In this document: positions 1-39,430 of the stretch, piece by piece
Layout: each line of letters begins with the position of its first letter
Position numbering within the stretch: the stretch's first letter is position 1
Source: a phage
Sequence record: PX123008.1
Length of the DNA: 44,682 nt
Direction: 5' to 3' (one strand)
Made by a program: the position numbers and the translations under genes
The notes under the pieces: model-generated
What the model was told of the DNA's origin: nothing
The model's input: the letters and a program-made list of their open reading frames with translations, nothing else
The model's database searches: none

Positions 1-20
1 TGCACAAAAGGGCTTATATC

Positions 21-12010: not shown

Positions 12011-12327
12011 GCGGGACAGGCGGGACGTCCCGTTTTGTCCCGCACCTCTAAAACTGCATATTTACCCACTTACATTGCATAGATTAAAAGCGGGACAGGG
12101 GTGCTGTCCCGATCTGTCCCACCCCCGAAATGTGAATGTCTATTCAGTTTTCGTGCATAAAACAAACGGGACAGAAAGCGGGACAGAATGAGGCGGGACA
12201 AAGCGGGACAGCACCCCTGTCCCCGCCAGTGCTGCCGCGGGTTTTTAGCCGATCGGGACAGGCGGGACAAGCCCAGTCTTTCAGACTAGACGGGGGTCAT
12301 TGGCCCCCCTCGTCTGAGACTGAATAA
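12011..12327. repeat. iteron cluster A: ~8 direct and 4 inverted GCGGGACA copies plus a conserved ~60-bp terminal hairpin
   Basis: GGGACA at 12013, 12092, 12168, 12180, 12195, 12205, 12255, 12264; TGTCCC at 12036, 12105, 12115, 12218; terminal segment nearly identical to 39366..39430. Confidence 0.85.
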
Positions 12328-15069: not shown

Positions 15070-15669
15070 ATGTCACAAGGTACAATCACATTAACTAAGG
15101 GGAGTAAGACCGTTACGGGCGCGGGAACGGCGTTCCTTAGCGAGATCGGGAAGGTACGCGTATTCGCCCGCATCGACGGCAACGACTACACCGGCAAAAT
15201 TGCGGCATTCAACTCGAACACGGTCATTACACTGAAAGATAACTGGGCCGGTCCGACGAAATCCGGTGCGGCATATGAGCTAATCGAAGCACACGACCCA
15301 CGGTCAAACGAATGGCCCTATTACTGGCACATGCAATTGCAGGGCGGCGGCGACGTGCAGTTAGCTTTCCGGTCGGAGGAATTGCAATTCGGTAATGGCT
15401 ACGGACAGAACATCGCGGACGGACCGAACGCAGAAACGAAACAGTTCCCCGTGCAATTCGTCGGACTGACTACTGATAAGTGGTGCGACCCTAAACTGGT
15501 TTATAACTTTCTGCGCGGTCACTTCGTCAAGCCGTTTGTTGTCACCGCTCCGGATGGCGAAACGGGTTTATTCGTGGTCGAGCGTTCGAGCTTGTCGTAC
15601 ACTGACAACGGGCACAACACGGCAACGGTGTCCGCCACCCTTAAGACCGCTATTGGATTCGTAAGATGA
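15070..15669 (+). CDS. minor tail protein (lambda gpM-like)
   Basis: 199 aa; segment FGNGYGQNIADGPNA recalls lambda gpM; position after the tape measure gene. Confidence 0.6.
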   Translation: MSQGTITLTKGSKTVTGAGTAFLSEIGKVRVFARIDGNDYTGKIAAFNSNTVITLKDNWAGPTKSGAAYELIEAHDPRSNEWPYYWHMQLQGGGDVQLAFRSEELQFGNGYGQNIADGPNAETKQFPVQFVGLTTDKWCDPKLVYNFLRGHFVKPFVVTAPDGETGLFVVERSSLSYTDNGHNTATVSATLKTAIGFVR

Positions 15670-16454
15670 ATAAACTATATCGTGAGGCGACGCGCTTTGA
15701 CCCATCGGGACGCGTTCGCCTGATTCACATTGACGCGCAGGACGTGGAGCCTGGAGACGGCGCGATCGGCGCGGGTCATCACTATTTTCACTATTGCTTT
15801 ATTCCGCACACTGCCGAGGATATTGCCGCAGCAGGAGGTGACGAGGACAAGCTAAAACCTAAATCCATCTTCTTCGGCGGGCAGGAGTTCGAATTTTGGC
15901 CCTTCGATTTGTCCGGCCTTAACTTCTCCACATCAACGGCAGCAGAACCGCAGCTGACCATTGTCGATATTGGCGGCATTATCACCAGGCTGTCACTGAA
16001 TCATGACCAGCTACTGGGCGCGAAGGTTGAAATAATCGACACGTTTGCGAAGTTCCTGGATAACGGGTCGGATCCAGACCCGACGCAAAAACGTGTCCAG
16101 GAGTATTACATCGACTCACAGGTTGGGCGCAATCCGGGCAAGCAGATCACCTTCGCATTATCCTCACCTGCGGATATGGAGGGGCAAGTAGTTCCCCGCC
16201 GCCAGATCATGAACATGTGCGAATGGGCGCTCAATGGGAAGTACGCCAGCGGGGACGGCTGCACGTGGAACCTTGCGAAGCCTGGTATCAAGTATTACGA
16301 CGAGCGAGGTAATGAAGTCATCGCGATGAACATGGACCGATGCGGCGGCTGTTTGTCCGACTGTTATCTTCGATTTGGGCAAGGTCTTGCGGACCCTAAA
16401 GCGGCGGTGCTGGACTTCGGTGGCTTTCCTGGGTCCAGATTAATTAAGGGGTAG
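15666..16454 (+). CDS. minor tail protein (lambda gpL-like)
   Basis: 262 aa; C-terminal cysteine cluster (CTW...CGGCLSDC) and GGFPGSRL as in lambda gpL from memory. Confidence 0.75.
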   Translation: MNKLYREATRFDPSGRVRLIHIDAQDVEPGDGAIGAGHHYFHYCFIPHTAEDIAAAGGDEDKLKPKSIFFGGQEFEFWPFDLSGLNFSTSTAAEPQLTIVDIGGIITRLSLNHDQLLGAKVEIIDTFAKFLDNGSDPDPTQKRVQEYYIDSQVGRNPGKQITFALSSPADMEGQVVPRRQIMNMCEWALNGKYASGDGCTWNLAKPGIKYYDERGNEVIAMNMDRCGGCLSDCYLRFGQGLADPKAAVLDFGGFPGSRLIKG

Positions 16455-16456
16455 TC

Positions 16457-17252
16457 ATGTTAACGAAGAAGGTTAAAAGCGATATCGCCGCACACGTCGC
16501 GGCATGTCTGCCGGAAGAAGCCTGCGGCCTGGTTGTCATGGTGGGCCGCAAACAAGTTTTTATCCCGTGCGTTAACGTATTCGAAGACCCTACCGGTGCG
16601 CGCTCGCGTAAGGACGCGTTTACAATCAGTGATACGGCCTGGATGGATGCGGAGGAGCTCGCGTAAGGACGCGTTTACAATCAGTGATACGGCCTGGATG
16701 GATGCGGAGGATATGGGAGACGTCGTTCGCGTAGTCCACTCACACCCAGGTCAGCGCGAGTTAACCCCGTCATTGGGTGACGTCAACGGCTGCAACGGCA
16801 GCGGCGTCGTCTGGACCATCACTAACGAATATGGCGACTTCATCGAGATCGACCCGGAAGACCCGCCGCTGGTAGGCCGCCGATTTGTTCTCGGAATTAC
16901 GGATTGCTATGGCCTCGTAATGGACTGGCACAAAAAGCAGGGCGTGATTCTTCCGGACTTCCGCGTGCCGTACAACTGGTGGGAGGCAGGCGAAAACCTG
17001 TATATGGACAATTGGTATGGAGCTGGCTTCCGGGAGTGTGCGGAGAATACGCCTGGGGCGATGGTCATCATGCAGATTAGCGCGCCAGTGCCTAACCATG
17101 CCGGAATCTACCTTCCGGGCAACCAACTCCTACACCATATCTACGGCAGCTTGTCGAGCGTCGTCCCCTTCCGGGCAGGATTTTTCCGCGACAATGTGGT
17201 TAAATGGGTGCGTCACAAAGACTTACCGTGGGATATCACAGAATGGCAATGA
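16457..17252 (+). pseudogene. tail assembly protein gpK-like (MPN/JAMM + NlpC/P60) split by a 55-bp tandem duplication
   Basis: N-terminal ORF 16457..16666 (EACGL...PCVN) stops inside the repeat; the rest (VVHSHPG...TDCYG...) continues in a frame shifted by +1; removing one repeat copy restores one 247-codon ORF. Confidence 0.7.
16602..16711. repeat. perfect 55-bp tandem duplication (2 copies)
   Basis: 16602..16656 is identical to 16657..16711, read directly. Confidence 0.95.
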
Positions 17253-17860
17253 CCACATTTAAATTATACGGCGTCTTAGGGCGTCGTTTTGGTAAAGTGC
17301 ACAAGCTGGATTGCTTCACCCCGGGCGAAGGTATCACAGGCCTATGCGTGAAGCTGCCTGGCTTACAGGACTTTCTAATGTCGGCCCACCTGGAAAATAT
17401 TATGTTCAAGGTGCGCAAAGGCAATCACACAATGACCGGATACGACGAGTTAGGAGAGTTCCACGGCGACCGCGTAGTTACCATCGCACCGGTTATGACC
17501 GGCGCAAAACGCGGACTAGGCCAATTACTGGCGGGCGTAGCCATCGTGGTGGCGTCGTTCTACACCGGCGGGCTTGCTACTGCCGCTTTCGGAGCTTCAG
17601 CCGCGACCGCTGCCGCTATCGGTACGGCAACGTTTTCGTTCGGGATGTCGATGGCGCTGGGTGGCGTTATGCAATTGCTGTCACCGCAACCGAAAGGATT
17701 GCAGACACGGCAGGACGTGGATAACAAGGCGTCTTATGCGTTCGGCGGACCGGTAAACACGACCGCGCAAGGTACGGCACTTGGTGTATTATGGGGCGAG
17801 CGTGAGATCGGCGGCGCTATTATTTCCGCCGGAATCGTAACCGAGGACTTGAACGAATGA
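17243..17860 (+). CDS. tail assembly protein (lambda gpI-like)
   Basis: 206 aa; start overlaps the gpK-like stop; hydrophobic glycine/alanine-rich C-terminal half; position between the K-like and J-like genes. Confidence 0.6.
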   Translation: MAMTTFKLYGVLGRRFGKVHKLDCFTPGEGITGLCVKLPGLQDFLMSAHLENIMFKVRKGNHTMTGYDELGEFHGDRVVTIAPVMTGAKRGLGQLLAGVAIVVASFYTGGLATAAFGASAATAAAIGTATFSFGMSMALGGVMQLLSPQPKGLQTRQDVDNKASYAFGGPVNTTAQGTALGVLWGEREIGGAIISAGIVTEDLNE

Positions 17861-20800
17861 CGATTATCTACGACGTCACAGGCCATAAAGGCGGAGGCGG
17901 CAAACAGCACACCCCACAGGAGACGCCTGACAGCCTGCATTCGCTGGCTAAAATCCGCATCTTGCTCGCACTGGGCGAAGGTGAGTTCGAAGGCATTACC
18001 GACCCTAACGAATTACGGCAGCGCGTATACCTGGACGGAACACCGATCCAGAACGCCGACCGATCCGAAAACTTCCCCGGCGCGCGCGTGGAGTTCCGTC
18101 CAGGCACACAGCACCAGGATGTGATCCACGGATTTTCCGCAGTGGAAAGCGAGCAAACAGTTGGCGTAAAACTGGAAAACGGCACGCCGTGGGTGCGCCA
18201 GATTAACGACACCAGTTTGGACGCCGTGCGCATTCGAATCGGCATTCCGGCCCTGTACACTAACGAAGATAATGGCGACCTGGTGGGCGGGCGCATTGAC
18301 TATAAAATCGTGGTGTATACGGATAACGCGGATCCGCGCGAGTTCCGCTTCTCTGCCGTCGGTAAGACAATGTCGCTGTACGAGCGCGACCACCGCATTG
18401 AGTTACCGCCGAACGTGAATACCGGCTGGCGCGTGGAGGTGCACCGCACGACGGCAGACTCCACATCGGCGAAAGTGGTCAATGATATTCGGGTGCAATC
18501 CATTACTGAGATTATCGACGCCCGCCTGCGATACCCGCTAACCGCGCTGTTGTTCGTGGAGTTCGACGCTAAGGCTTTCCAGAACATCCCGCGCGTGTCC
18601 ATCAAGTGCAAAGGACGTAAAGTGCTGGTGCCGAACAACTATGACCCGATTAGGCATACCTATTCGGGAAACTGGGATGGCACGTTTAAACGCGCATGGA
18701 CGGATAACCCGGCGTGGCACTGGTACGATATTTGTATTACTGAGCGCTTCGGCCTCGGTCGGCGTATCAAACCGCAAATGTTAAACCGGTACGCGCTCTA
18801 CCAGATTGCGCAGCGCTGCGATCAGCTGGTCAGTGACGGCAACGGCGGACGGGAAATCCGATTTAAGAATGATATGTACATTCAGTCACAGACGGATGCC
18901 TGGACCGTGCTTAAGGATTTAGCCGCTATCTTTGCCGGTATGACCTGGTGGGGAAATCAGATGTTGAATATCGTCAGTGACCAGCCGGTCGCAGCGGTAT
19001 CGCACACCATCACCAACGCCTCGGTCATTGATGGTAGATTCGACTACGCGTCCGGTAGCCAGAAAACTCGGTATTCCACGTTCGCGGTAGCATACGGCAA
19101 CCCGAAGAACCACTATGAAGACGCCATTGCTACGGGGCAGCGTGTCGAACTGGTACGCCGCCATAAGATTAACCGTCTGGATATAACGGCGATCGGCTGT
19201 ACGCGTGAGTCAGAAGCGCAACGACGTGGGCACTGGGCGCTAATCTCCAACCAGCTTGACCAGCAAGTTAGCTTTAAGGTTGGCATGGAGGGACTTTTCT
19301 TTATTCCGGGTAGCGTAGTCGCGATCGCCGATACAAACATTTCTGGCGGCTTCGAGACACGCGGCGGTCGCCTGTTGTCAGATCCAGGCACGCGTACTGT
19401 ACTGAACACAGACAGCGAAATCACGTTCCGCCCAGGTGATAAATTCCTGGTACGCACCGATAGCGGTAGTGTGGAGACTCGCGAGATCGCCAGCGTCAAC
19501 GGCAACAAGGTTACGCTAAAAACCGCACTGGACGCCGACCCTATTCCAGACCAGCCGTTTTGCGTTGATGGCGACGATATCCAGTTGCAGAAATTCCGCA
19601 TCACCGACCTGGAATATGACGACTCTACCAGCACTTTTTCAGTGCGCGGGATCGAGTACAACGATAGCAAATATGATGCCGTTGATAATGGCGCTCGCCT
19701 TGACCCTGGTATTTTCACGCAAGTGCCAGACGGCGTAATGAAGGGGCCGGAGTCCGTGACCATCACCCCGTCGCAGATTTCATCGCAAGGCCAGCTAATC
19801 ACCAACGTGGATATTGTTTTCCCGCCGGTGAAAGATGCCGTGGTGTATGAAATACAGTGGCGACGTACCAGCTTGCAGAATATGGAAATCCAGTGGGGTA
19901 ACGACTGGGTGAACATCCCCCGCACGGCATCGAACGGTGCGCACATCCCGAACGTGTTTTCCGGTAACTATCAGGCACGCGTCCGCGCGATCGGTATGGG
20001 TGAGATTTCATCCCCGTGGGTGTCGTCTGCCATCACGCCGATCGAAGGTCGTCTCGGTGGGCTTAACGCGCCTATCATCACCAACGCGATTTCGGGCCTC
20101 CACCAAATTTTGTGGAAGTGGAACCACAACAACGCCGCGACGGATATTTCGTATACCGAGCTTGAGGTCCGCAAGCGGGGCGAAACGGAATGGAAGTTCT
20201 TGACCAACGTCCCATATCCGGGGTCGGACTATGCGCAAACGTCGCTGGAGTTCGGCATATACCAGCAGTTGCGCGCCCGCGTAGCGGATAAAATCGGCAA
20301 CCTGTCGGACTGGTCTGCCCCGTTTGAAGGCCAGGTGAGTGACAAAGTTGACGAGTACATGAAGGGGCTTGATGACGAGTTCTTGACTTCCGAGGATGGT
20401 AAACGCTTCCAGGAAGCGATCGACACCATGCCGCAAGGCATTTATGAGGCCATGCTCACCGACGCACAGCAGTTGTTTAACGCCCGCGCCGAGTATAAAG
20501 GGATTTATGCGGAAATAACGGTGGCATATAACGTGGCGGCGGACGCCCACAAGGCGGTCGCTCAACTGGAGACGTTGATCGGCACGCGCCTTGACGATGC
20601 TGAAGCGGCGATCCACACGTTGCAGACGGCGCAGAGTACGCAGGAACAAGCGTTCGCCCAGTACCAGCAAACTGTTGCCGCTAAGTTCGCGGAACAGGAA
20701 GCTGCCATCCAGCAGGTACAAACGGCAACGGCAGACGTAGCGGGCGCGCTGGCGGAGTACAAGACCCATGTAGCGGCGCAGTTCGACCAACAGTCCGCAG

Positions 20801-21279
20801 CTATTGAGCAGAAGATGACGTCTTCGTTTAACCATGCTGGCGGTAGTGCCACATACAGCCTTAAGGCTGGCGTGACGTATAACGGGACTTACTACGATGC
20901 CGGTATGCAGCTTTCGGTCGTGGCGGAAGGTGGCGCGGTTAAATCCCGCATCGCGTTCAAGGCTGACCAGTTCTACATCATGCACCCATCTAACGGGTCG
21001 CTTTCGTCTGCGTTTATTGTAGACGGCGGGGCGGTGTACATCGACACGGCACGCATCAAGGACGCGACTATCAACTTCGCGCAGATCACGGACACGCTGC
21101 AATCTAATAACTACGACGGCAGCACGCGAGGCTGGCGCTTAGGGAAAGATGGGACGTTTATCAACCTGGGAACCGGTAGCGGTGGCGGGGCGATGAAAAT
21201 GACGAATGACACAATCAGCGTAAAGGATTCTAACGGGGTTTTGCGGGTCCAGATTGGTAAAATCACGGGGGGTTGGTGA
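17857..21279 (+). CDS. central tail fibre / host specificity protein (lambda gpJ-like)
   Basis: 1140 aa; N-terminus HKGGGGKQHTPQE parallels lambda J GKGSSKGHTPRE; size and position after the I-like gene. Confidence 0.88.
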   Translation: MTIIYDVTGHKGGGGKQHTPQETPDSLHSLAKIRILLALGEGEFEGITDPNELRQRVYLDGTPIQNADRSENFPGARVEFRPGTQHQDVIHGFSAVESEQTVGVKLENGTPWVRQINDTSLDAVRIRIGIPALYTNEDNGDLVGGRIDYKIVVYTDNADPREFRFSAVGKTMSLYERDHRIELPPNVNTGWRVEVHRTTADSTSAKVVNDIRVQSITEIIDARLRYPLTALLFVEFDAKAFQNIPRVSIKCKGRKVLVPNNYDPIRHTYSGNWDGTFKRAWTDNPAWHWYDICITERFGLGRRIKPQMLNRYALYQIAQRCDQLVSDGNGGREIRFKNDMYIQSQTDAWTVLKDLAAIFAGMTWWGNQMLNIVSDQPVAAVSHTITNASVIDGRFDYASGSQKTRYSTFAVAYGNPKNHYEDAIATGQRVELVRRHKINRLDITAIGCTRESEAQRRGHWALISNQLDQQVSFKVGMEGLFFIPGSVVAIADTNISGGFETRGGRLLSDPGTRTVLNTDSEITFRPGDKFLVRTDSGSVETREIASVNGNKVTLKTALDADPIPDQPFCVDGDDIQLQKFRITDLEYDDSTSTFSVRGIEYNDSKYDAVDNGARLDPGIFTQVPDGVMKGPESVTITPSQISSQGQLITNVDIVFPPVKDAVVYEIQWRRTSLQNMEIQWGNDWVNIPRTASNGAHIPNVFSGNYQARVRAIGMGEISSPWVSSAITPIEGRLGGLNAPIITNAISGLHQILWKWNHNNAATDISYTELEVRKRGETEWKFLTNVPYPGSDYAQTSLEFGIYQQLRARVADKIGNLSDWSAPFEGQVSDKVDEYMKGLDDEFLTSEDGKRFQEAIDTMPQGIYEAMLTDAQQLFNARAEYKGIYAEITVAYNVAADAHKAVAQLETLIGTRLDDAEAAIHTLQTAQSTQEQAFAQYQQTVAAKFAEQEAAIQQVQTATADVAGALAEYKTHVAAQFDQQSAAIEQKMTSSFNHAGGSATYSLKAGVTYNGTYYDAGMQLSVVAEGGAVKSRIAFKADQFYIMHPSNGSLSSAFIVDGGAVYIDTARIKDATINFAQITDTLQSNNYDGSTRGWRLGKDGTFINLGTGSGGGAMKMTNDTISVKDSNGVLRVQIGKITGGW

Positions 21280-21282
21280 TAT

Positions 21283-21300
21283 AGGGGCTTCGGCCCCTTC
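21283..21300. terminator. bidirectional hairpin between convergent genes
   Basis: GGGGC-ttcg-GCCCC between the J-like stop and the minus-strand gene at 21303. Confidence 0.45.
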
Positions 21301-21302
21301 TA

Positions 21303-21917
21303 TCAATCGTATTTAGCCGCATCTATTGCGAGTATGGATGGTGAATAATAAACGCCGAGCGGCCCTGGTGTGTGGGCTACTTGCTTAGATATCGAATAAA
21401 TGCCTGTTCCGGATGCGCCGGATTGTGATTCATAAATCGCGTGCCCACCAATCTGAGGGGTGGGAACCGAGTTTATTGCCGTTTGTTGTGGCGATACGGC
21501 ACATGTATACCCCAGATTAACATCAAAAGACAGACCATTTATCGGTATTTGGTGGGCCTCCAGCGGCAGCATTTTCCCGTGGTACACCATATTCCCCGCA
21601 GAATTATAGAATGCGATCCCGTAGTCTCCTGGCGGGGTAACCATATCACTAAAAGCATAAACCTTAATCCATCCTGGATTGTCAGTTTTGTCTAGCCGGA
21701 GCGCATGATAACCACCATTATTTATGTGGGTGAATGCCGTGTATGCACGCCCTCCCATCCTTACAAAGAAAAAGCACACGCGATCGAATGGTATTGGCGT
21801 TGTAAAAACAGAACCGCTATACACCCCCATATCACCGCGACTTATCAAATTAACAGGCGTAAAATCCGGGCTTAACCAAATGGACCCATCCGGCTTTGTG
21901 ATCTGCATTCCGTACAT
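21303..21917 (-). CDS. hypothetical protein
   Basis: 204 aa, ATG with GGGGG RBS; possible own promoter TTTAAC-N17-TATATA upstream. Confidence 0.5.
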   Translation of the reverse strand: MYGMQITKPDGSIWLSPDFTPVNLISRGDMGVYSGSVFTTPIPFDRVCFFFVRMGGRAYTAFTHINNGGYHALRLDKTDNPGWIKVYAFSDMVTPPGDYGIAFYNSAGNMVYHGKMLPLEAHQIPINGLSFDVNLGYTCAVSPQQTAINSVPTPQIGGHAIYESQSGASGTGIYSISKQVAHTPGPLGVYYSPSILAIDAAKYD

Positions 21918-22459: not shown

Positions 22460-22539
22460 GGTATCATCTCCTATATTTGGTTGAGTTTTAGTATTACACC
22501 GCTCGATCAAGAATGCAACCAATTTACGAGGATTTAGCT

Positions 22540-23925
22540 ATGGCGGCGGGAACATTATCCGTAACGAATAACAGCAAGGCAGTTGCAGGGGTTGACACGA
22601 CGTTCACCGCGTTTAAAGCTGGCGACTTCTTAACTCTGGTGGTGGGGCAAGTGCCTTACACCGTGGCAATCGCATCCATCGAAAGCGACACCGCGCTTAC
22701 GCTTGTGCTGCCGTTCGACGGACCCACGGCAACCGGCCTCGCGTGGGATGGCGTTAAGCGCGATACCATGTCACTGGCAACGATGGGCGTTACCGTACAG
22801 GCGCAGAAAGCACTGCGCTTGATGATTGCGGACGAAAACAACTGGCGTGCAATCTTCGGAGACGAAGAAGAAATCACGGTAACGCTGCCGAACGGGCAAG
22901 TTATGCAGGGTATGTCGTGGGGATACCTGTCGCAATTGCTGAAGGAAGTTGACCCCGTTGAAATGCGCAACCTGCAACAACAAGCCGCGGCATCTGAAGC
23001 AGCAGCGCAAGGATTTCGCGATCAGGCCAATGCTGCGAAGTTAGACGCACAAGCCGCGCGCGACGCGGCAAAGACCTCCGAGACTAACGCCGAGCAATGG
23101 GCGCAAAGCGTGAACGCCAACAACCTGCTAACAAAATCCGGCAACCTGCTAACAAAATCCGGCAACCTGGCGGGCATTACGGATTCGGCGGAGGCTCGTA
23201 ACAATCTTGGTCTGGGTCCTTTGTCTACAGCAAATGTGGTACCGGTAGAAAACGGTGGTACGGGAGTAACCAGGGCCGAGGATCTATGGCCTGTAGTTCG
23301 ACCTGTCGACGTGTTCGGAAACGTAGGTCACCTTATAGGTATTCCTAACGGTATTACACGAAATCATATCTGGCTGTGGAACACCGCAGATACACCACCT
23401 GCCGGTTGGGTTAACTACATGGAGGGGGGTTGGTTTAATGGTGTATGGCGTTTAGGTGGGGTTCGTGGCGGTAACGAGAACTTATCACATGCGCAGATTA
23501 CCGTTAATAGCGGTCAGGGTTCGGAAGCTCACTTCATGTTTTATCCTGATGGTTCCGCGCTCGCCGCAAACTGGGTGTCAACATCTGACCCACGTGTCAA
23601 GTCTCTGGTTGAGGTTATACCGGACCCTCTTGATTTGATGCGCAGTATCCGGGGTTATTCGTGGTACTACGAGCATACTGGTAGTAAGGGCTTCGGGTTC
23701 CTGTCTTCCGAGGTGAAGGTTAACTTCCGCGGGGCTGTTAAGACATTCGGTGATGCTGAGTTGCCCGATGGCACCGTAGTCCATGATGTAGAAGGTGTTG
23801 ATGTATCTGGTGTATCTGCCGCCCTCCACCATGAAGCCATTCTTGCTTTGATGGATAAAATGGAGGATATGCAGAAGGAACTGGAGGAGTTGAAAACTGC
23901 CGTAGCGGCCAAGACTAAAGCATAA
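22540..23925 (+). CDS. tail fibre protein
   Basis: ATG with GAGGA RBS 8 nt upstream (the track start at 22513 has no RBS); contains an in-frame NLLTKSG x2 repeat; 3' end duplicated. Confidence 0.65.
   Translation: MAAGTLSVTNNSKAVAGVDTTFTAFKAGDFLTLVVGQVPYTVAIASIESDTALTLVLPFDGPTATGLAWDGVKRDTMSLATMGVTVQAQKALRLMIADENNWRAIFGDEEEITVTLPNGQVMQGMSWGYLSQLLKEVDPVEMRNLQQQAAASEAAAQGFRDQANAAKLDAQAARDAAKTSETNAEQWAQSVNANNLLTKSGNLLTKSGNLAGITDSAEARNNLGLGPLSTANVVPVENGGTGVTRAEDLWPVVRPVDVFGNVGHLIGIPNGITRNHIWLWNTADTPPAGWVNYMEGGWFNGVWRLGGVRGGNENLSHAQITVNSGQGSEAHFMFYPDGSALAANWVSTSDPRVKSLVEVIPDPLDLMRSIRGYSWYYEHTGSKGFGFLSSEVKVNFRGAVKTFGDAELPDGTVVHDVEGVDVSGVSAALHHEAILALMDKMEDMQKELEELKTAVAAKTKA
23121..23162. repeat. 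21-bp in-frame tandem repeat inside the tail fibre gene
   Basis: caacctgctaacaaaatccgg twice, encoding NLLTKSG twice. Confidence 0.9.
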
Positions 23926-23981
23926 GGAGAAAGGGCCATACGGCCCAGACTAAAGCATAAGGAGAAAGGGCCATACGGCCC
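23912..23981. repeat. 35-bp tandem duplication covering the tail fibre stop codon and terminator hairpin
   Basis: agactaaagcataaggagaaagggccatacggccc twice; only the second copy is followed by T9. Confidence 0.9.
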
Positions 23982-32569: not shown

Positions 32570-33355
32570 TTAACGGCGGCGACGTTTACGTGGTGCTTCG
32601 TCTTCGTCGTCTTCGTCCTCATCTTCGTCATCGCGGGACTTGCGGCGTTTGCGAGGTTTTTCATCTTCCTCATCGTCGTCGTCATCGCGGCGCTTTGACT
32701 TTTTGGACTTACGCGGCTTGTCGTCTTCGTCATCGTCATCACGACGTTTTGACTTTTTGGACTTGCGCGGGCTTTCGTCTTCGTCATCGTTGTCCAGGTC
32801 TTCGTCGGAACATGAAGACCCGCCACCTCCGAAGGCTTCGCCGTCTTCACGGAAGCGTAAACCCAGCAAGCCAGCACCGAGTCCCTTGCCGTTGGTGTTG
32901 TTCCACGCCCAAATATCAAGGGACACGTTGCAATAACAACCGGAGTAGATCTCCTGGCCTTCAATCTCGTCGCCGTCGATGGTCAGACCTTGTTCAGTCT
33001 GCTTCTCGCCGAGTGACGTTTGAATGATAGGCTGTTTGAACGATTTGGCGTTGATATACAACATGCCTTCGAATTCTTCGGTCACTTCGTCGCGCTCGTC
33101 ACCGTCGCGGACTGCGCATTCCTTCGAATCCTGGGCGTAGTGGCGGTCCATCCACTTATCGGCATTCTTCTCGGATTTCAGCTTGTCGGTGAGCACTGCG
33201 CGTGCTGCCGCTTCCACTTTGTCCACCTGCGGATCTTCTTTATCCAGAAGAATCACGGCACGGTATGCCGGTTTTTGTCCATCCTGTTTAGGGGTGTCAC
33301 GTTCCCAGATTTTCAGGAAGCATACGCGCACATTTTTCAGGTTGACTTTAGCCAT
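32570..33355 (-). CDS. single-stranded DNA-binding protein (T7 gp2.5-like), with a repetitive charged C-terminal tail
   Basis: 261 aa from ATG 33355; N-terminal MAKVNLKNVRVCFLK recalls gp2.5-type SSBs; sits between the Cas4-like nuclease and the polymerase; tail of three ~20-aa K/R-D/E repeats ending APRKRRRR. Confidence 0.5.
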   Translation of the reverse strand: MAKVNLKNVRVCFLKIWERDTPKQDGQKPAYRAVILLDKEDPQVDKVEAAARAVLTDKLKSEKNADKWMDRHYAQDSKECAVRDGDERDEVTEEFEGMLYINAKSFKQPIIQTSLGEKQTEQGLTIDGDEIEGQEIYSGCYCNVSLDIWAWNNTNGKGLGAGLLGLRFREDGEAFGGGGSSCSDEDLDNDDEDESPRKSKKSKRRDDDDEDDKPRKSKKSKRRDDDDDEEDEKPRKRRKSRDDEDEDEDDEDEAPRKRRRR

Positions 33356-39250: not shown

Positions 39251-39430
39251 TAAAACTGCATAAACTAAGCGGGACAGAAAGCGGGACAAACAAGGGGCGG
39301 GACAAAGCGGGACAGCACCCCCTGTCCCGCCCGGATGGCGCGGCCTGGAGAGGAGCGGGACAAGCGGGACAAAGCCCAGTCTTTCAGACTAGACGGGGGT
39401 CAACGGCCCCCCTCGTCTGAGACTGAATAA
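39251..39430. repeat. iteron cluster B: 6 direct and 1 inverted GCGGGACA copies plus the conserved ~60-bp terminal hairpin
   Basis: GGGACA at 39271, 39283, 39299, 39309, 39357, 39366; TGTCCC at 39323; 39366..39430 nearly identical to 12264..12327. Confidence 0.85.

Follow-up and report, generated by a model that had tools for sequence, protein, structure and literature searches.

The locus analyzed here lies in the tail region of a phage genome record of 44,682 nucleotides (the whole stretch is hereafter called the window), in which a gpK-like gene sits between gpL-like and gpI-like genes and upstream of gpJ, in the order L-K-I-J. The upstream neighbor (15666..16454, plus strand) encodes a gpL-like minor tail protein (Phage_tail_L), and the identical protein is present on many independent contigs. 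On the other side, a gene for a gpI-like tail assembly protein (phrog_32; 17243..17860, plus strand) overlaps the end of the gpK-like gene, as it does in relatives, and is followed by a J-like protein of 1140 amino acids (17857-21279). The gpK-like gene as a whole occupies 16457..17252 on the plus strand, and as written it is divided between two frames of 69 and up to 239 amino acids. The open reading frame (ORF) that starts at the ATG at 16457 and ends at 16666 (plus strand) encodes the 69-residue N-terminal fragment, which by itself covers only positions 2-63 of the JAB/MPN profile with a score under the Pfam cut-off. The downstream ORF in the +1 frame (16533..17252, plus strand) carries the rest of the JAB domain (HSHPG...SLGD) together with the whole NlpC/P60 domain (TDCYG).

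By direct comparison, we found that the segments at 16602..16656 (copy 1, GCTCGCGTAAGGACGCGTTTACAATCAGTGATACGGCCTGGATGGATGCGGAGGA) and 16657..16711 (copy 2), both on the plus strand, are directly adjacent and identical at 55 of 55 positions; TRF reported a period of 55, 2.0 copies, 100% matches, and a score of 220. The repeat is blunt, that is, the identity extends 0 nt beyond either side and the flanking microhomology is 0 nt. An exact repeat of 55 nt cannot have arisen by chance in 44.7 kb. The junction between the copies reads GGATGCGGAGGA on the copy 1 side and GCTCGCGTAAGG on the copy 2 side, while the single-copy arrangement reads CCGGTGCGC, one unit, and TATGGGAGAC. A preliminary description of this DNA had reported the perfect duplication at 16602-16711, and both methods agree with it. 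The same holds for its reading of the coding frames: in our analysis, the frame from 16457 stops after 69 residues at the TAA at 16664..16666 inside copy 2, the remainder of the protein continues in the +1 frame (open from 16533 to 17252), and the removal of one copy yields a single gpK-like ORF of 741 nt, corresponding to 246 amino acids and a stop codon. It had also placed an in-frame ATG at about 16693, a position that needs revision, as the ATGs of the downstream frame are located at 16647, 16698, and 16713.

The 246-residue product obtained with one copy removed carries PF14464 (Prok-JAB, MPN/JAMM) at residues 4-106 and PF00877 (NlpC/P60) at residues 122-229; these two domains come together in one polypeptide only after this removal, since they fall in two frames in the sequence as written. 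The repaired protein matches phrog_30, “minor tail protein”, across its full length, is 96% identical to a 444-member Dhillonvirus cluster, and shows, by inspection of its translation, the putative catalytic motifs HSHPGQRELTPSLGD, TDCYG, and NHAGIY. None of the NCBIfam models matches the gene. In a collection of 15 billion proteins, there is no entry for the exact repaired gpK or for any of the candidate fragments, and no existing record was found for the 69-residue fragment, the tail fiber, the tape measure, or a 191-residue protein of the window. Judged from its predicted domain content, the gene is of the TAPK/gpK type, in which JAB/MPN and NlpC/P60 domains are combined, as described by Iyer et al. 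2006 (PMC1779556). The repaired ORF shares the domain pair and the L-K-I-J gene order with gpK/TAPK of lambda, from which the gene in the window differs in being cut by the 55-bp repeat into its two frames. In lambda virions, gpK was undetected by mass spectrometry (PMC10721106).

A comparison with related phages had been proposed in the preliminary description, and it gave a consistent answer: a single copy is present in at least 129 relatives from GenBank and 24 contigs from independent assemblies, with an intact 246-residue K gene wherever the gene is complete. There are 158 phage records that match the region, of which 129 span the site, each aligning as two BLAST pieces over 55 fewer bases. 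A three-way alignment with SO-1 and P-GXEC-L2P5 shows one copy with clean borders, and the single copy and clean boundaries are also seen in an alignment of 12 loci drawn from GenBank, ENA, Logan, and NCBI assemblies. Among independent contigs with a gpL or gpM identical to that of the window, all 15 that extend across a complete K gene carry the intact 246-residue JAB and NlpC/P60 gene. At the protein level, fused two-domain proteins of about 230-260 amino acids account for 117 of the 120 best homologues, and the 444 members of the Dhillonvirus cluster are all represented at 246 amino acids.

We also looked for the repeat itself in public collections. The junction between the two copies was absent from IMG/VR, from JGI metagenome contigs, and from 100,044 species genomes (one genome per species), both as an exact pattern and as a pattern made degenerate at the sites that vary among relatives; the control pattern of the single-copy arrangement matched 13 IMG/VR contigs. 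The allele-specific right flank, with its GGGAGAC variant, was not found in IMG/VR or in the JGI metagenomes. It is worth mentioning that a Logan contig from an independent assembly, SRR35159944_3166, matches the window from 16972 to 21833 with 0 mismatches over 4.86 kb; the one difference is a homopolymer slip (GGG to GG) within the first 10 nt of the contig, which points to low coverage at this tip. This contig encodes the identical 1140-residue J protein and begins 260 nt downstream of the 55-bp repeat, and its identity to the window implies that run SRR35159944 holds the same strain. One of the matching records, Escherichia phage P-GXEC-L2P5 (PQ843332.1), is itself unusual: its “complete genome” is deposited with 88,607 bp, whereas 44-45 kb, about half of this, is typical of Dhillonvirus, and the query aligns with it at two places. 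The record is probably a concatemer or a chimeric assembly.

The window as a whole is a complete, circularly permuted genome of a Dhillonvirus (HK578/SO-1-like). It is absent from the INPHARED phage collection, in which the best matches, to many coliphages, are about 92-94% identical overall, and there is no match to it among RefSeq E. coli assemblies. The last 1500 nt of the window followed by its first 1500 nt form one continuous alignment of 3000 nt in phage PTXU06, which indicates a circular or circularly permuted assembly. The record opens 20 nt upstream of the ATG of the small terminase gene terS (1..20, plus strand), and its position 1 aligns with record position 2 of both HK578 and EC115. 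The ends of a contig are placed arbitrarily by the assembler; a start that coincides with those of HK578 and EC115 therefore shows that the finished assembly was re-oriented on a reference, and the junction of the former contig ends has to lie at some interior point of the window. Such a re-orientation follows the convention given for siphoviruses in the Phage Annotation Guide (PMC8785237).

These features led us to the interpretation that the 55-bp duplication is the untrimmed end-overlap of a circular contig, kept when the genome was re-opened, and is not phage biology; we assign this reading a probability of about 0.7. The default k-mer sets of SPAdes for short reads and of metaSPAdes end at k = 55, which equals the length of the end-overlap. 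An assembler of this de Bruijn type would write out a circular genome in linear form, with the first k bases of the contig present again at its end; k would here be 55, the largest default value for short reads. The original contig would by chance have begun and ended inside gene K, such that copy 1 represents its 3' end and copy 2 its 5' end. Cutting this contig at the HK578 start, just upstream of the small terminase, and joining the old ends with the overlap untrimmed would leave a perfect and blunt tandem repeat of 55 bp wherever the old ends happened to lie, and gene K would for this reason appear frameshifted, whereas the real phage would have a single copy and an intact gpK of 246 amino acids. 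Both the assembler and the omission of the trimming step are inferred.

Overlaps of this kind are documented. For a T4-like phage assembled with default SPAdes, the overlapping ends of “55 bp” were first trimmed, and the contig was then “reopened” on a reference (PMC8483715); a metagenomic plasmid contig in an assembly graph had ends “overlapping by 55 bp” (PMC8851603); and SPAdes short-read assemblies were noted to give artefactual terminal repeats in a 2026 INPHARED preprint. The repeat in the window resembles the terminal k-mer overlap of SPAdes and metaSPAdes circular contigs in its length of 55 bp, its identity, its blunt ends, and its occurrence in a re-opened permuted genome, but such an overlap usually sits at the contig ends and is trimmed, while the repeat in the window is interior. 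What can be checked of the closure model agrees with observation throughout: the two copies are identical and adjacent, their length equals an assembler k, the ends are blunt, the circular genome has been rotated, the arrangement is absent elsewhere, and the site is indifferent to gene function. A frameshift here would destroy a gene that is kept as a single ORF in nearly all of the best homologues, and this counts for an artefact.

The 55-bp repeat is accompanied by other repeats in the window, two of which are likewise perfect and private. The first is a 21-bp tandem repeat of 2.33 copies at 23121-23169, in the lateral tail-fiber gene (22513-23925), where it inserts NLLTKSG without changing the frame. 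The 21-bp repeat has a native direct repeat of 7 nt, CAACCTG, at its boundaries, its junction was not found in IMG/VR, and it looks like a genuine slippage event that is possibly relevant to fiber length or host range. The other is a blunt 35-bp repeat of 2 copies at 23912-23981, which comprises the last four codons of the tail-fiber gene, the stop codon, and the GGGCCATACGGCCC terminator hairpin, and gives two hairpins between convergent genes; it is either a real duplication or a join artefact. The preliminary description had assigned two more duplications to the tail-fiber gene, which is right for the 21-bp repeat but not for the 35-bp repeat, as the latter straddles the stop codon and terminator. 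Both are single-copy in PEC9, PTXU06, GeorgBuechner, and ZCEC10, and perfect tandem duplications of more than 12 bp are absent from four full-length relatives. The two lie at the two borders of the C-terminal cassette of the tail fiber (about 23190-23956), which is variable and lacks a close counterpart at the DNA level among Dhillonviruses; relatives are similar up to about 23190 and again from about 23957, and the whole tail-fiber protein has no Pfam match. The cassette could be a recombination scar or the site of an assembly patch. Likewise, the two repeats may reflect a duplication-prone lineage or further joins in a stitched record.

Other repeats of the genome have counterparts in relatives. 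An imperfect 54-bp repeat of 2.3 copies (86% matches) at 32666-32790, in a minus-strand coding region, also occurs in relatives with varying length, with 15 gap positions against SO-1 and 51 against GeorgBuechner, whose corresponding gene is annotated as coding for a putative ssDNA-binding protein. The 54-bp array looks like a naturally occurring protein repeat of variable copy number. Arrays of a 12-nt motif (CGGGACAGAAAG / AAGCGGGACAGA) are found at two loci, 12167-12211 and 39267-39372. They match in position the repeat regions annotated in Sodalis phage SO-1 as “region A”, upstream of the tape measure gene, and “region B”, downstream of the primase/helicase gene, and may be binding sites for a regulator or a replication protein. 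We considered whether all tandem repeats of the window are artefactual and rejected this idea, because the 14-bp (6408) and 54-bp (32666) arrays are common to relatives and because the microhomology at the ends of the 21-bp repeat is the mark of real slippage. The notion that the periods 21, 35, and 55 are all SPAdes k values was also rejected, given that 35 is no default k and that 21 is set by a native direct repeat.

The two private duplications count against an artefact at the 55-bp site, since they could come from a lineage or a culture in which true duplications are frequent, and would then raise the prior for a real event there. It also counts against an artefact that the 35-bp repeat is blunt even though 35 is not a default k-mer size. 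Tandem duplications do occur in phages, and two of them within 7.4 kb hint at a lineage-specific tendency. The repeat could accordingly be a true duplication in the phage DNA, made by an error of replication or recombination and inactivating gpK. In that case, what was sequenced would be a variant that is defective or of recent origin, for example in a mixed lysate where wild-type co-infection complements it, and recombination between the repeats could readily remove one copy and restore the gene. Like the tandem duplications that arise by slipped-strand mispairing in phages, the repeat is short, exact, and head-to-tail. It differs from that class in disrupting a conserved gene and in the absence of microhomology at its end points (0 nt), unlike the 21-bp event, which has 7 nt and fits the class. 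On this account it would be by mere chance that the length, exactly 55, equals a default assembler k, and the frameshift would interrupt the JAB domain of a gene that is a single ORF in every relative examined. Since lambda needs its K gene for tail assembly, the frameshift should not be the consensus sequence of an isolate that forms plaques. The 21-bp and 35-bp duplications leave coding intact, and that only the 55-mer damages a gene is expected if it never faced selection. It is also the only one of the three whose length matches an assembler default. The junction is seen in no other public assembly searched. We regard a real inactivating duplication as unlikely, though deserving of some weight.

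A different artefact of assembly is also conceivable. The record might have been stitched from separately assembled or patched pieces, such as contigs, a reference-guided consensus with a de novo tail-fiber cassette, or amplicons, with overlaps left at the joins to give the 55-bp and perhaps the 35-bp repeat. The positions of the 21-bp and 35-bp repeats, at borders of a variable cassette where assemblies and consensus sequences tend to break, would suit this account, as would the blunt ends shared by the 35-bp and 55-bp repeats. The period of 21 bp, by contrast, is the spacing of the native 7-nt direct repeat, which slippage predicts and a random overlap would match by mere coincidence; similarity to relatives shows no change of pattern at 16602-16711 that would mark a contig break, and three overlap lengths would need an assembler other than SPAdes. 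We therefore consider stitching of separate pieces improbable. Still less credit is due to a tolerated duplication, in which the 69-residue N-terminal fragment and a C-terminal fragment re-initiated at the ATG at 16647, 16698, or 16713 would reassemble, sharing a duplicated overlap of 18 amino acids, or the intact NlpC/P60 half would suffice. The first of these in-frame ATGs precedes the TAA by 17 nt and the other two follow it by 32 and 47 nt, the C-terminal fragment keeps the complete NlpC/P60 domain, and TAPK versions with NlpC/P60 only exist in some phages (PMC1779556) as well as in phrog_2552 and P0054. The window does resemble naturally split or single-domain TAPK genes (phrog_2635 and phrog_2552) in having two ORFs where most phages have one, but the natural JAB-only (phrog_2635) and NlpC/P60-only (phrog_2552) forms divide at the domain border, at about residues 120-143, whereas the break in the window falls at about residue 66, inside the JAB fold, and parts the N-terminal strands and the conserved Glu (EEACG) from the HSHPG...SLGD metal site. 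Just one Shine-Dalgarno-like sequence (GGAGG) is present; with 2 nt between its end and the ATG at 16713, it is too near to the start codon for initiation to be efficient, and it belongs to the normal coding sequence that all relatives share; none of the relatives examined has the split arrangement. Expression as two separate domains, as put forward in the preliminary description, is thus not borne out.

Recoding would offer another way to a functional product. Frames 0 and +1 are both open from 16533 to 16664, and a programmed +1 frameshift anywhere in this interval would give full-length gpK with an insertion of 18 amino acids. Where both frames are open, there is no slippery heptamer and no known +1 motif, only a single run of T5; relatives lack both the segment and the frame change, and an exact copy of ordinary coding sequence cannot carry an evolved recoding signal. 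We give this account almost no credence. The preliminary description had left artefact, inactivating duplication, and two-domain expression unranked; our results favor the artefact, lend no support to the two-domain reading, and provide the real duplication with none from relatives or collections. That the 55-bp duplication is not a real feature is the most probable conclusion.

The untrimmed-overlap reading has practical implications beyond this record. A blunt and perfect tandem repeat of 55, 77, 99, or 127 bp in a re-oriented circular genome would be a screening signature for phage databases. If the second copy is an artefact and stays in the record, annotation of this essential tail gene would show a pseudogene and two ORFs that do not exist in the phage, which could misdirect comparative work or quality checks of therapeutic phages. 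Were the duplication real instead, a tail assembly gene would have been knocked out reversibly, and the phage would offer a natural experiment on the need for the JAB domain of gpK. If such a phage still made tails, with gpK working as two overlapping fragments or with the NlpC/P60 half alone, the JAB/MPN domain of lambda-type K would be dispensable or could be reconstituted in trans, and, together with the private 21-bp and 35-bp duplications, the phage would represent a lineage with an unusually high rate of tandem duplication. If the repeat is an artefact of contig closure, as we favor, one 55-bp copy should be deleted from the record, which brings it to 44,627 bp, and the phage would have an intact gpK of 246 amino acids.
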